Part shown: positions 1,924 through 7,413 of the stretch, one piece after another
Layout: each line of letters starts with the position of its first letter
Numbering within the stretch: position 1 is the first letter of the stretch
Source: Escherichia coli
GTDB taxonomy: Bacteria; Pseudomonadota; Gammaproteobacteria; Enterobacterales; Enterobacteriaceae
Reading direction: 5' to 3' (one strand)
Assembly (NCBI RefSeq): GCF_003334405.1
Contig: NZ_QOWM01000026.1
Length of the DNA: 37,729 nucleotides
Program-made: the position numbers and the translations under genes
Notes under the pieces: model-generated
The model's input: only the letters and a program-made list of their open reading frames with translations
Told to the model about the DNA's origin: nothing
The model's database searches: none

Positions 1924-3243
1924 ATGGATATCTGCTCCCGAAACAAGAAATTAACGATTAGAAGACCAGCGATACTAGTTGCACTGGCACTTTTACTGTG
2001 TAGTTGTAAAAGCACGCCTCCAGAGTCCATGGTGACACCACCAGCAGGTTCAAAGCCACCAGCCACGACGCAACAATCGTCACAACCGATGCGTGGCATC
2101 TGGCTGGCCACGGTTTCTCGGCTCGACTGGCCACCGGTTTCCTCGGTTAACATTAGTAACCCCACCAGCCGGGCCCGTGTACAACAACAGGCGATGATCG
2201 ACAAACTGGATCATCTGCAACGTCTCGGCATAAACACGGTCTTTTTCCAGGTCAAGCCGGACGGTACCGCCCTGTGGCCATCGAAAATTTTGCCGTGGTC
2301 CGATCTTATGACCGGTAAGATTGGTGAAAATCCGGGTTACGATCCGCTGCAATTTATGCTCGACGAAGCCCACAAGCGTGGGATGAAAGTACACGCCTGG
2401 TTTAACCCCTATCGCGTATCGGTTAATACGAAGCCCAGTACTATCAGGGAACTGAATAGCACTCTGTCTCAACAACCGGCGAGCGTCTATGTGCAACACC
2501 GCGACTGGATCAGAACGTCTGGCGATCGCTTTGTCCTCGACCCGGGCATCCCTGAGGTTCAGGACTGGATCACATCAATAGTCGCAGAAGTGGTTTCCCG
2601 CTATCCCGTAGATGGCGTGCAGTTTGACGACTATTTCTATACGGAGTCACCGGGTTCACGGCTAAATGATAACGAAACGTACCGTAAATACGGAGGCGCA
2701 TTTGCGTCAAAAGCAGACTGGCGGCGCAACAATACTCAGCAGTTAATTGCAAAGGTATCGCACACCATTAAAAGCATTAAGCCGGGAGTCGAATTTGGTG
2801 TTAGCCCGGCAGGCGTGTGGCGTAACCGATCACACGATCCGCTCGGTTCCGATACCCGAGGCGCGGCAGCCTATGACGAATCCTACGCTGACACCCGTCG
2901 ATGGGTGGAACAAGGATTGCTGGATTACATTGCTCCCCAAATTTACTGGCCGTTCTCACGGAGTGCCGCGCGTTATGACGTGTTGGCAAAATGGTGGGCG
3001 GATGTCGTTAAACCGACCAGGACCCGCCTGTATATCGGTATCGCCTTCTATAAAGTGGGTGAACCTTCAAAGATAGAGCCAGACTGGATGATTAACGGCG
3101 GCGTACCGGAACTGAAAAAGCAGCTCGATCTTAACGATGCTGTGCCCGAAATTAGCGGCACCATCTTGTTCCGTGAGGACTATCTGAATAAACCGCAGAC
3201 TCAACAAGCGGTCAGCTATCTGCAAAGTCGCTGGGGCAGTTAA
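1924..3243 (+). CDS. yddW: lipoprotein YddW, glycoside-hydrolase-like fold, function unknown
   Basis: ORF track 439 aa; N-terminus has signal peptide ending in lipobox LLLCSC; recognised as YddW. Confidence 0.9.
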   Translation: MDICSRNKKLTIRRPAILVALALLLCSCKSTPPESMVTPPAGSKPPATTQQSSQPMRGIWLATVSRLDWPPVSSVNISNPTSRARVQQQAMIDKLDHLQRLGINTVFFQVKPDGTALWPSKILPWSDLMTGKIGENPGYDPLQFMLDEAHKRGMKVHAWFNPYRVSVNTKPSTIRELNSTLSQQPASVYVQHRDWIRTSGDRFVLDPGIPEVQDWITSIVAEVVSRYPVDGVQFDDYFYTESPGSRLNDNETYRKYGGAFASKADWRRNNTQQLIAKVSHTIKSIKPGVEFGVSPAGVWRNRSHDPLGSDTRGAAAYDESYADTRRWVEQGLLDYIAPQIYWPFSRSAARYDVLAKWWADVVKPTRTRLYIGIAFYKVGEPSKIEPDWMINGGVPELKKQLDLNDAVPEISGTILFREDYLNKPQTQQAVSYLQSRWGS

Positions 3244-3606
3244 ACTCCCATTCTTACTTTGTAACAAGCCGGTGCTTTACCCACCGGCTTGTTACCCTCT
3301 TAAACTATCCCACTAATAATCATGCTTACTTAAGTCAAATTAACCACACTTAGTTAAACAGCCATAAATCCCTAATAAAAATGTATGAATATGAAAAACC
3401 ATACGATATTCGCTGTCACCGAAAAATAATTACGATGGGCTATACTCTTCTGAAGAACAGTAGCGTAGATTGAAACTGTCCTAAATCGCTTATTTCTTTT
3501 CAGTATATCTTCATATTTCAGGAGAATATGGTGCAGTTAGTCGATCTCGCACGTTGCGTTTCATTTTGATTCCGTCTGATTTCCCAGCCTTATAAGGGTG
3601 TGAATT

Positions 3607-4989
3607 ATGGAGATGTATTTTAAAAGAATGAAAGATGAGTGGACCGGACTTGTCGAACAGGCAGATCCGCCCATTCGTGCTAAAGCCGCGGAAATTGCCG
3701 TTGCGCATGCTCATTATCTGAGTATCGAGTTTTATCGAATTGTCCGCATCGACCCGCATGCCGAAGAATTCTTGAGTAATGAACAAGTTGAGCGGCAGTT
3801 GAAGAGTGCGATGGAACGCTGGATTATTAACGTGCTTTCTGCCCAGGTTGACGATGTCGAAAGGCTAATACAAATCCAGCATACCGTCGCGGAAGTGCAT
3901 GCCCGCATAGGAATTCCGGTAGAAATTGTCGAGATGGGGTTTCGGGTGCTGAAAAAAATCCTCTATCCGGTGATCTTCTCTTCGGATTATTCCGCCGCAG
4001 AAAAACTTCAGGTCTACCATTTCTCGATTAACAGTATTGATATCGCGATGGAAGTGATGACTCGCGCGTTTACCTTTAGTGACAGTAGTGCCTCAAAGGA
4101 AGATGAAAACTATCGTATCTTCTCGTTACTGGAAAACGCCGAAGAAGAAAAAGAACGGCAAATAGCCTCAATACTTTCATGGGAAATAGATATTATCTAT
4201 AAAATCCTGCTGGATTCTGATTTAGGCAGTAGTTTGCCTTTAAGCCAGGCTGATTTTGGCCTGTGGTTTAACCATAAAGGTCGACATTATTTTAGTGGTA
4301 TTGCCGAAGTAGGCCATATCTCCCGTCTGATTCAGGATTTCGACGGTATTTTCAATCAAACCATGCGTAACACCAGAAATTTGAATAACAGAAGTCTGCG
4401 GGTGAAATTTTTATTACAGATAAGAAATACCGTATCGCAAATTATTACCTTGCTGCGTGAATTGTTTGAAGAAGTATCGCGCCACGAAGTCGGTATGGAT
4501 GTACTGACGAAATTACTTAACCGCCGTTTCCTACCGACTATCTTCAAACGCGAAATTGCCCATGCCAACCGGACCGGTACACCGCTGTCAGTGCTGATTA
4601 TTGACGTTGATAAATTCAAAGAGATCAACGATACGTGGGGCCATAACACTGGTGATGAAATTCTGCGTAAAGTCTCTCAGGCCTTTTATGACAACGTCCG
4701 CAGTAGTGATTATGTTTTCCGCTACGGGGGCGATGAATTTATCATTGTTTTGACTGAAGCTTCTGAAAACGAAACGTTACGTACCGCAGAACGTATTCGC
4801 AGTCGGGTGGAGAAAACCAAACTGAAAGCCGCAAACGGCGAAGATATTGCCCTCTCACTTTCCATCGGTGCCGCCATGTTTAATGGTCATCCTGACTATG
4901 AGCGCCTCATTCAAATAGCCGATGAAGCTCTGTATATCGCCAAAAGACGAGGTAGAAACCGTGTTGAACTCTGGAAAGCCAGTCTTTAG
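3607..4989 (+). CDS. dosC: globin-coupled oxygen-sensing diguanylate cyclase (GGDEF)
   Basis: ORF track 460 aa; C-terminal GGDEF-domain motifs (RYGGDEF) visible in translation; recognised as DosC/YddV. Confidence 0.93.
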   Translation: MEMYFKRMKDEWTGLVEQADPPIRAKAAEIAVAHAHYLSIEFYRIVRIDPHAEEFLSNEQVERQLKSAMERWIINVLSAQVDDVERLIQIQHTVAEVHARIGIPVEIVEMGFRVLKKILYPVIFSSDYSAAEKLQVYHFSINSIDIAMEVMTRAFTFSDSSASKEDENYRIFSLLENAEEEKERQIASILSWEIDIIYKILLDSDLGSSLPLSQADFGLWFNHKGRHYFSGIAEVGHISRLIQDFDGIFNQTMRNTRNLNNRSLRVKFLLQIRNTVSQIITLLRELFEEVSRHEVGMDVLTKLLNRRFLPTIFKREIAHANRTGTPLSVLIIDVDKFKEINDTWGHNTGDEILRKVSQAFYDNVRSSDYVFRYGGDEFIIVLTEASENETLRTAERIRSRVEKTKLKAANGEDIALSLSIGAAMFNGHPDYERLIQIADEALYIAKRRGRNRVELWKASL

Positions 4990-5013
4990 ATGCGCCAGGA
5001 TGCAGAGGTAATC

Positions 5014-7413
5014 ATGAAGCTAACCGATGCGGATAATGCCGCCGATGGCATTTTTTTCCCCGCCCTTGAGCAAAATATGATGGGTGCGGTGTTAATTAAC
5101 GAAAATGATGAAGTGATGTTTTTCAACCCCGCCGCAGAGAAGCTCTGGGGATACAAACGTGAAGAAGTCATTGGCAATAACATTGATATGCTGATTCCGC
5201 GGGATTTGCGTCCTGCGCATCCTGAATACATTCGTCACAACCGTGAAGGCGGTAAAGCGCGTGTTGAGGGGATGAGTCGGGAGCTGCAGCTGGAGAAAAA
5301 AGACGGCAGTAAAATCTGGACCCGTTTTGCGCTATCGAAAGTGAGCGCCGAGGGGAAAGTTTATTACCTGGCGCTGGTACGGGATGCCAGCGTAGAAATG
5401 GCGCAAAAAGAACAGACCCGACAATTGATTATTGCCGTTGACCATCTCGACCGACCGGTGATTGTCCTCGATCCGGAACGCCATATTGTGCAGTGCAATC
5501 GCGCATTTACCGAAATGTTTGGTTACTGCATTAGCGAAGCCAGCGGTATGCAGCCCGATACACTCCTGAACATTCCTGAATTCCCTGCCGATAACCGCAT
5601 TCGTTTACAACAGTTGCTATGGAAAACCGCCCGCGATCAGGACGAATTTCTGCTGTTGACGCGCACCGGTGAAAAAATCTGGATTAAAGCCTCTATCAGC
5701 CCGGTTTATGACGTGCTCGCGCATCTGCAGAACCTGGTAATGACTTTCTCGGATATCACCGAAGAACGGCAGATTCGCCAGCTTGAAGGCAATATTCTCG
5801 CCGCCATGTGCAGCAGCCCGCCATTTCATGAAATGGGGGAAATCATTTGTCGTAACATCGAATCTGTACTCAACGAATCGCATGTTTCGCTGTTCGCACT
5901 GCGCAACGGGATGCCGATACACTGGGCGTCATCTTCCCACGGTGCAGAAATTCAAAATGCGCAAAGCTGGTCAGCGACCATTCGTCAGCGTGATGGCGCG
6001 CCTGCGGGGATCCTGCAAATTAAAACCTCGTCAGGAGCAGAAACCAGCGCCTTTATCGAACGCGTGGCAGATATCAGCCAGCATATGGCCGCGCTGGCGC
6101 TGGAACAGGAAAAAAGCCGTCAGCATATTGAACAACTCATCCAATTTGATCCGATGACCGGTCTGCCAAATCGCAATAACCTGCACAATTACCTCGATGA
6201 CCTGGTCGACAAAGCCGTCTCTCCCGTGGTGTATCTCATCGGTGTTGACCATATTCAGGATGTGATTGATAGCCTTGGCTATGCGTGGGCCGATCAGGCA
6301 TTGCTGGAAGTGGTCAATCGCTTTCGTGAAAAACTCAAACCGGATCAGTATCTCTGTCGTATCGAAGGTACGCAGTTTGTCCTCGTGAGCCTCGAAAACG
6401 ACGTCAGTAACATTACCCAAATCGCCGATGAGCTACGGAATGTGGTCAGCAAGCCGATAATGATTGACGATAAACCCTTCCCGCTTACCTTGAGTATTGG
6501 CATCAGCTACGACCTGGGTAAAAACCGCGATTACTTGCTCTCCACTGCTCACAATGCAATGGATTATATTCGCAAGAATGGCGGTAACGGCTGGCAGTTC
6601 TTCAGCCCGGCGATGAACGAAATGGTAAAAGAGCGTTTGGTTTTAGGCGCAGCGCTGAAAGAAGCGATTAGCAATAACCAACTGAAACTGGTTTACCAGC
6701 CGCAAATCTTCGCAGAAACGGGTGAACTGTACGGCATCGAAGCCCTTGCTCGCTGGCACGATCCCCTGCATGGTCATGTGCCCCCTTCACGGTTTATTCC
6801 TCTCGCAGAAGAGATTGGTGAAATCGAAAATATTGGGCGCTGGGTCATCGCGGAAGCTTGCCGTCAGTTAGCAGAATGGCGTAGCCAGAATATTCATATC
6901 CCGGCGTTATCCGTGAACTTGTCGGCGCTGCACTTTCGCAGTAATCAACTGCCTAATCAGGTGTCTGATGCAATGCACGCCTGGGGTATTGACGGCCACC
7001 AGCTGACGGTAGAAATCACGGAAAGCATGATGATGGAACACGATACCGAAATCTTTAAGCGCATTCAGATCCTGCGTGATATGGGCGTGGGCTTATCGGT
7101 AGATGATTTTGGTACGGGCTTTTCCGGATTATCCCGCTTAGTCAGTCTTCCGGTAACGGAAATCAAAATTGACAAAAGTTTTGTCGATCGTTGTCTGACC
7201 GAAAAACGCATCCTTGCCTTACTTGAAGCCATTACCAGCATTGGGCAAAGCCTCAATTTAACCGTCGTGGCGGAAGGCGTCGAAACCAAAGAGCAATTTG
7301 AGATGCTACGCAAGATCCACTGTCGCGTTATTCAGGGATATTTCTTTTCCCGCCCCCTACCCGCCGAAGAAATTCCAGGCTGGATGAGCAGCGTGTTACC
7401 GCTGAAAATCTGA
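5014..7413 (+). CDS. dosP: heme-PAS oxygen-sensing c-di-GMP phosphodiesterase (PAS-PAS-GGDEF-EAL)
   Basis: ORF track 807 aa from ATG 4990; I place the start at ATG 5014 (MKLTDADNAADG..., 799 aa) because GAGG lies 5 nt upstream; EAL-domain motifs in C-terminal half. Confidence 0.9.
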   Translation: MKLTDADNAADGIFFPALEQNMMGAVLINENDEVMFFNPAAEKLWGYKREEVIGNNIDMLIPRDLRPAHPEYIRHNREGGKARVEGMSRELQLEKKDGSKIWTRFALSKVSAEGKVYYLALVRDASVEMAQKEQTRQLIIAVDHLDRPVIVLDPERHIVQCNRAFTEMFGYCISEASGMQPDTLLNIPEFPADNRIRLQQLLWKTARDQDEFLLLTRTGEKIWIKASISPVYDVLAHLQNLVMTFSDITEERQIRQLEGNILAAMCSSPPFHEMGEIICRNIESVLNESHVSLFALRNGMPIHWASSSHGAEIQNAQSWSATIRQRDGAPAGILQIKTSSGAETSAFIERVADISQHMAALALEQEKSRQHIEQLIQFDPMTGLPNRNNLHNYLDDLVDKAVSPVVYLIGVDHIQDVIDSLGYAWADQALLEVVNRFREKLKPDQYLCRIEGTQFVLVSLENDVSNITQIADELRNVVSKPIMIDDKPFPLTLSIGISYDLGKNRDYLLSTAHNAMDYIRKNGGNGWQFFSPAMNEMVKERLVLGAALKEAISNNQLKLVYQPQIFAETGELYGIEALARWHDPLHGHVPPSRFIPLAEEIGEIENIGRWVIAEACRQLAEWRSQNIHIPALSVNLSALHFRSNQLPNQVSDAMHAWGIDGHQLTVEITESMMMEHDTEIFKRIQILRDMGVGLSVDDFGTGFSGLSRLVSLPVTEIKIDKSFVDRCLTEKRILALLEAITSIGQSLNLTVVAEGVETKEQFEMLRKIHCRVIQGYFFSRPLPAEEIPGWMSSVLPLKI

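Follow-up and report, generated by a model that had tools for sequence, protein, structure and literature searches.

The stretch of DNA considered here, referred to as the window, comprises 37,729 nucleotides of Escherichia coli (RefSeq assembly GCF_003334405.1, contig NZ_QOWM01000026.1). Two of its genes, digH (also named yddW; positions 1924-3243) and dosC, flank an intergenic spacer at 3244-3606, and the length of 363 bp that an earlier note had given for this spacer is accurate. The note, made from the letters alone, had also proposed a 13-codon upstream ORF within it. This ORF is present as described. It runs from an ATG to a TGA, 13 codons plus stop, and reads ATGGTGCAGTTAGTCGATCTCGCACGTTGCGTTTCATTTTGA (codons ATG GTG CAG TTA GTC GAT CTC GCA CGT TGC GTT TCA TTT TGA). 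As claimed, AGGAG stands only 3 nt before the ATG, with AAT in between. The distance from the stop to the dosC ATG had been put at about 40 nt and measures 37 nt. The features of the region are collected in Table 1.

Table 1. Features of the digH-dosC spacer and the start of dosC (window positions)
Feature	Position	Strand	Basis
yddY coding sequence	3528..3569	+	Sequence and identity to NC_000913.3 1567178-1567219 (minus strand); SPA tag (PMC6001520); Ribo-RET (PMC11429745)
yddY Shine-Dalgarno (SD) sequence, AGGAG	3520..3524	+	Sequence; within the 14-nt invariant run 3517-3530
dosC, diguanylate cyclase DosC	3607..4989	+	Gene downstream of yddY, same mRNA
dosC SD region, AAGGGUG	3594..3600	+	Sequence
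Approximate dosCP mRNA start	3460	+	3607 minus 147 (PMC5435950)
Predicted sigma-S-type -10 element GCTATACTCTT, with TATACT at 3441-3446 and C at -13	3439..3449	+	Read by eye
5' arm of predicted long-range helix, core 3502-3515 AGUAUAUCUUCAUA	3485..3520	+	MFE and duplex calculations
3' arm of predicted helix, spanning the dosC AUG and codons 2-10	3601..3636	+	Folding

It is close to certain that this ORF is yddY, a known 13-codon sORF that is already catalogued and not new. All 42 nucleotides and all 13 amino acids are identical to yddY of E. coli K-12 MG1655, where the annotation of NC_000913.3 lists a CDS at exactly these 42 nt (yddY, b4746, YP_009518783.1, "protein YddY"). The flanking genes match as well, with yddY of MG1655 lying between digH/yddW and dosC. 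In other words, there is no difference from the yddY described by VanOrsdel et al. (2018; PMC6001520), and the two are the same gene. Other E. coli genomes annotated by PGAP/RefSeq, including a re-sequenced MG1655, list no gene at the yddY position, and this may be why it went unrecognized from the letters alone. The gene has been part of the curated K-12 annotation since the 2018 report, and as a discovery the ORF matters little.

Two observations concern the neighbors of the spacer. Just past the digH stop there is a perfect 14-bp inverted repeat, GTAACAAGCCGGTG...CACCGGCTTGTTAC (3261-3295), with a GCCGGTG/CACCGGC core that is kept across Escherichia species. It has no U-run and was not called by a terminator scan, and it is probably the digH terminator. 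On the far side of dosC, the dosP ORF was called from an ATG at 4990 that abuts the dosC stop (TAGATG; window 4987-5016), which makes it 807 aa long. RefSeq places the dosP start 24 nt later, at 5014, for a product of 799 aa.

The evidence that yddY is translated comes from published work. VanOrsdel et al. found it, with the same coordinates and the same peptide, among 36 sORFs detected by immunoblot of chromosomally SPA-tagged products. YddY-SPA is among the least abundant small proteins tested. Weaver et al. is also among the published sources on YddY. More recently, Vellappan et al. (PMC11429745, a preprint) picked YddY from retapamulin start-site profiling as being up at least 3-fold at low Mg2+. 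This Ribo-RET start peak is the kind of initiation-site profiling signal that the earlier note had named as a check. The same study reported that the activity of the yddY upstream region is PhoQP-dependent, that YddY is not membrane-associated, and that neither deletion nor overexpression gave a phenotype. Because both SPA tagging and Ribo-RET detect it, yddY is translated, and it is translated at a low level. The suggestion that the ORF might be chance in an AT-rich region can be dismissed, because it is an annotated and experimentally detected sORF. One detail of initiation is worth adding. In every lineage the ATG of yddY is followed directly by another start codon, GTG or, in E. albertii, ATG (3528-3533). 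This second codon lies 6 nt from AGGAG, which is closer to the usual spacing than the 3 nt of the annotated ATG. Judged from these spacings, initiation may occur at either codon.

The length of the ORF would have been a poor guide to any of this. When the 363-nt spacer was shuffled 5000 times with its dinucleotide composition preserved, 87% of the shuffles had an ATG ORF of 13 codons or more. The real spacer itself contains two further ATG ORFs, at 3381-3473 (30 codons) and 3385-3429 (14 codons), both without an SD sequence. Therefore, ORF length alone is no evidence. These two ORFs also lie largely upstream of the mapped transcription start. What is rare is the combination of an ORF of at least 13 codons with a preceding AGGAG or GGAGG, which arises in only 0.7% of the shuffles.

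The next question is which transcript carries yddY. A transcriptome study of BL21(DE3) reported a dosC 5' UTR of 147 nt (PMC5435950), and the leader of the B strain has the same length as that of K-12. This puts the transcription start 68 nt upstream of the yddY ATG. Because the 5' UTR reaches beyond it, yddY is an upstream ORF on the dosCP mRNA. It thus shares an mRNA with the main ORF, as judged by the 5' UTR length, and according to the literature is translated from it. A scan for sigma-70 promoter consensus sequences around the spacer found none, so the promoter call rests on a sigma-S-type -10 element read by eye and on the published 5' UTR length. The element GCTATACTCTT resembles KCTAYRCTTAA, which we take to be the sigma-S consensus. 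The +1 expected from it (~3453) lies 7 nt upstream of the start at 3460. Two other observations are that 3440-3450 is the second-longest invariant run among five Escherichia lineages and that an RpoS-holoenzyme SELEX peak has been assigned to yddV (PMC5493296). We infer that the dosCP leader, including yddY, is transcribed from a stationary-phase (sigma-S-type) promoter.

A search for PhoP boxes (KGTTTA-N5-KGTTTA, up to 3 mismatches) gave two sites on the minus strand, at 3355-3381, with 2 mismatches each. The window has 106 such matches where 81 are expected, so that these two candidates are no better than chance, and conservation over 3355-3381 is poor (0.29). Any direct PhoP site here is therefore conjectural. 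The PhoQP dependence may be indirect, via IraM-mediated stabilization of RpoS acting on the sigma-S promoter. A literature search on post-transcriptional control of dosC (CsrA, sRNAs, UTR) gave nothing relevant.

Variation within E. coli was surveyed in 5426 complete genomes, in 5413 of which the spacer was matched. About 4200 of these genomes fall into a spacer identity band of 90-95% because of a 12-bp tandem duplication at 3338-3349. K-12-type strains have one copy of AATTAACCACAC there, and most E. coli genomes have AATTAACCACGC AATTAACCACAC. With regard to yddY itself there are three classes. The 13-codon frame is present in approximately 3140 genomes (58%, by subtraction), and the sampled changes in it are synonymous (TCA/TCG, GAT/GAC), with only about four substitutions observed in the 42 nt of yddY within E. 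coli. A 5-bp deletion near the 3' end of the ORF is found in 1211 genomes (22%). It leads to a 20-aa product, with the extended frame ending at a TAA (3593-3595) that overlaps the dosC SD sequence. In the third class, about 1050 genomes (19%) in which a 101-nt probe matches no further than its nucleotide 56, the 3' end of yddY and most of dosC are deleted, which leaves a fusion frame of 57 codons. Loss of DosC has been documented in some strains (PMC5635171).

The rearrangements at this locus have some features of their own. In the dosC-deletion genomes (Nissle among them), dosC is reduced to a 165-nt 3' remnant while dosP is intact. The deletion covers ~3563-4243 and beyond, and its left breakpoint falls in yddY codons 11-12, around a short shared TGATT. 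These strains have dosP behind the yddY start site and the 57-codon fusion ORF. A different event is seen in strain MS20673, which lacks the entire dosCP-ddp region and has an IS1 shortly after digH, making the gene order digH, IS1, sra, maeA.

Does YddY have a function of its own? One possibility is that the 13-aa peptide acts in trans as a microprotein, with a target in, say, the low-Mg2+/PhoQP response or the DosC-DosP-PNPase complex. The tagged product does accumulate, low Mg2+ induces it and its transcription depends on PhoQP. In addition, codons 1-11 are the same in every sampled E. coli that has an intact dosC. However, the non-coding leader on either side is at least as invariant. The C-terminus is replaced in the 22% of genomes with the 5-bp deletion, and it is fused or deleted in the ~19% with the larger one. 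That YddY is not membrane-associated and that its deletion or overexpression gives no phenotype also speaks against such a role. A trans-acting YddY is improbable, and more so given that the peptide is absent outside E. coli.

This last point comes from a DosC scan of a genome collection, which recovered orthologous loci in four Escherichia lineages other than E. coli. These are two GTDB species representatives labeled "E. coli" (L007 and L009), E. whittamii (L008) and E. albertii (L015). The scan recovered further loci in Citrobacter, Kluyvera, Phytobacter, Enterobacter and Trabulsiella, but in these genera the dosC leaders were unalignable and contained no convincing SD-preceded uORF or anti-start helix. 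Two of the matches deserve a separate comment. The match in E. albertii NBRC 107761 extends only over residues 1-352 of the 460 in DosC, and dosC of this type strain thus appears truncated or disrupted. Another match is a 398-bp contig in an Oceanospirillum linum assembly that encodes DosC residues 1-79 with 100% identity to E. coli, and the most likely source of this contig is contamination with E. coli DNA.

With fourfold degenerate sites of dosC as the neutral benchmark (mean pairwise identity 0.52), most of the leader lies well above it, with identities of 0.86 for 3453-3519 and 0.83-0.84 for 3553-3592. The block consisting of the yddY SD sequence, the ATG and codon 2 reaches 0.97. In contrast, codons 3-8 have an identity of 0.54, which is the neutral rate. 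The run 3517-3530 (TTCAGGAGAATATG), which contains the SD sequence and the ATG, is the longest invariant one in the promoter and leader of the five Escherichia lineages. This is only modestly unusual when the whole leader is conserved at 0.83-0.86 (0.71^11 is ~0.02), and the invariance could reflect another constraint at the RNA or DNA level.

The reading frame has a different history. In the four lineages the ORF begins ATG GTG CCG TAA, ATG GTG CTG TAA, ATG GTG CGA TAA or ATG ATG TAG TAA. A fifth allele, ATG GTG CAA TAA, came from a scan of metagenomes, which otherwise gave repeats of two known alleles and 24 unrelated matches. Every non-coli allele has TAA where E. coli has TTA, and its frame stops after 2-3 codons. 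None of the sister-lineage alleles has a megablast match in the 5426 E. coli genomes. The most parsimonious account is that a mini-ORF of 2-3 codons lost its stop in E. coli, and only there, and so became the 13-codon ORF. The earlier note had held that a loss of the frame or the start codon in relatives would count against the ORF. The outcome is divided, because the start codon and the SD sequence are invariant in the other Escherichia lineages whereas the frame is not kept, and it is frameshifted even within E. coli in the deletion allele. YddY has neither amino-acid conservation beyond the species nor purifying selection on its frame, unlike MgrB and MgtS. As far as sequence comparison can tell, then, the peptide is not under detectable constraint and no part of the leader is more conserved than the initiation site. 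On our best reading of these alignments, YddY as a peptide plays no conserved role. The comparison shows it to be evolutionarily new and dispensable, in line with the lack of phenotypes.

If the peptide is not what is selected, perhaps the start site is. A clue to what it might do is provided by the predicted structure of the leader. Nucleotides 3502-3515, directly 5' of the yddY SD sequence, are predicted to pair with 3606-3619, which include the dosC AUG and codons 2-4. More pairs extend the helix out to 3485 and 3636, with the variable yddY body at the apex of the hairpin. The yddY SD sequence (here GGAGA, 3521-3525) is itself predicted to pair with UUUCC at 3580-3584. The duplex of the two arms has a calculated energy of -24.8 to -26.1 kcal/mol, corresponding to z-scores of -4.2 to -4.6 against shuffled sequences (0 of 500 as stable). 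The z-scores are -2.9 to -4.2 in L007 and E. whittamii, and the duplex is weak (z about -1.4) in L009 and E. albertii, the most distant lineages. A covariation test on 7 Escherichia sequences found 0 compensatory pairs for the helix, and none of the few substitutions in its 5' arm preserves pairing. The helix is thus a statistically unusual prediction and nothing more.

What would a ribosome at yddY do to this structure? In the free leader the predicted probability of being unpaired is 0.00 for the dosC AUG and 0.10 for the yddY SD sequence. When 3513-3543 is blocked in constraint folding, as by a ribosome at the yddY start, the probability for the dosC AUG goes from 0.00 to 0.48. However, most of the helix persists under this modeled ribosome, and the accessibility of the TIR increases only from 0.24 to 0.31. 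Modeled ribosomes in the middle of the ORF or at the yddY stop have no effect. The idea that yddY translation opens the helix is therefore weakly supported by these models.

Taken together, these observations lead us to propose a cis-acting role for the yddY start site, although with confidence that falls somewhat short of even. The selected feature would be the ribosome-binding site AGGAG-N3-AUG, and not the peptide. In its ancestral form this site would open a mini-ORF of 2-3 codons, which E. coli would have extended to 13 codons through the TAA-to-TTA stop loss. Ribosomes would load beside, and partly on, the 5' arm of the predicted hairpin, the base of which would pair the dosC start codon and the middle of which would pair the yddY SD sequence. 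Occupancy of the yddY start site might then modestly tune the translation of DosC. There are points against this. The helix lacks compensatory changes, is weak in the two most distant lineages and largely persists under the modeled ribosome, and the dosC leaders of other genera have no uORF or comparable helix.

A quite conceivable alternative, to which we give roughly a third of our belief, is that translation of yddY is a by-product. The SD-AUG block would be kept for some other reason, such as an RNA structure, a site for a protein or an sRNA, or a DNA site. Ribosomes would initiate there incidentally and infrequently, with no effect on fitness from either the peptide or the act of translating it. 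This fits the low abundance of YddY-SPA and the lack of a phenotype upon deletion or overexpression. It also fits the freedom with which the length and C-terminus of the ORF vary within E. coli (13, 20 or 57 aa), as well as the neutral rate of the ORF body. The short SD spacing and the predicted pairing of most of the SD sequence are further points in its favor, and the remaining leader is conserved too, even though it is untranslated in the sister species. However, some observations do not fit so well. No other stretch of the leader is as conserved as the SD-ATG block, and composition alone would seldom produce an ORF of this length behind an SD sequence. Furthermore, the five non-coli alleles differ at codon 3 but all share the in-frame TAA at codon 4, a pattern that hints at selection for a short ORF.

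The cis-acting reading can be taken a step further. A genus-wide mini-ORF, AGGAG-N3-AUG-GUG-NNN-UAA, might be an occupancy switch on a long hairpin that masks the dosC start, and stop loss would have turned it into a microprotein of 13 or 20 aa. This full version is unlikely, but if true it would allow the birth of a de novo small protein gene from a regulatory mini-ORF to be dated. Because the YddY peptide is E. coli-specific and variable within the species, searches for a function in trans hold less promise than work on the start site as a possible cis control of the oxygen-sensing DosC/DosP module of c-di-GMP metabolism. In any case, yddY is a compact example of how stop loss in a mini-ORF can yield a detectable "small protein", and it bears on how many tagged or Ribo-seq-positive sORFs truly function. 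To that extent the comparative picture is of modest use.

How does yddY compare with known systems? The earlier note had raised the possibility of a leader peptide. In terms of position this holds, because yddY is an upstream ORF inside the 147-nt dosC 5' UTR. In its size range and leader position it is also like trpL, hisL, pheL and ivbL. Classical attenuation would require that a ribosome stalled on this short ORF in the 5' leader chooses between a terminator and an antiterminator upstream of dosC. Neither the consensus scan of 3200-3700 nor the folds of the leader produced an intrinsic terminator, that is, a G+C-rich hairpin followed by a U-run, and yddY has no cluster of regulatory amino-acid codons. 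A scan of 3150-3750 against Rfam 15 at a permissive E-value gave nothing at gathering score. Its sole match, rli61 at the 3' end of digH, scored 24 bits against a gathering score of 50 and is irrelevant. The genes downstream of yddY encode c-di-GMP enzymes, in contrast to those behind the four leader peptides. Without a terminator or a codon run, and with an ORF of only 2-3 codons in the sister species, attenuation is disfavored and can be regarded as highly improbable, leaving that part of the suggestion unsupported.

A closer parallel may be the start-stop or minimal ORFs that Meydan et al. (bioRxiv 10.1101/520783) identified in E. coli by Ribo-RET, including those in yecJ and hslR. Such a site cannot make a functional protein, because a stop almost directly follows the SD-preceded start codon, and it has been proposed to tune translation of the associated gene. 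Indeed, lengthening the yecJ start-stop changed its effect (10.1101/520783). The non-coli Escherichia alleles are similar in that an SD sequence is followed by an ORF of 2-3 codons, and the E. albertii allele would be ATG-TAG if the second codon is the start. By the definition of a stop within 0-2 sense codons, all five non-coli alleles would qualify and the 13-codon allele of the window would not. A difference is that the yecJ and hslR sites are internal and out of frame within genes, whereas the yddY site is in a 5' leader.

The remaining comparison is with regulatory uORFs proper. In E. coli, uof-fur and toiL-topAI are suitable examples. A survey of uRBSs in S. meliloti describes regulatory uORFs that work via translational coupling or via unmasking or occlusion of the RBS (PMC13285730). 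Like all of these, yddY is translated on the leader of the main gene, and the predicted structure likewise involves the start of that gene, dosC. Unlike them, yddY has no evident stalling motif or sensing function. The location of the stop codon separates the alleles. Because its stop is 37 nt from the dosC AUG, yddY of K-12 is too far away for direct coupling or occlusion, for which the uORF should end at or within a few nt of the main SD sequence or start codon. In the 5-bp-deletion allele the stop does overlap the dosC SD sequence, as in overlapping uORFs. Perhaps, in this 22% of E. coli genomes, termination on the dosC SD sequence would couple the two ORFs directly by termination-reinitiation.
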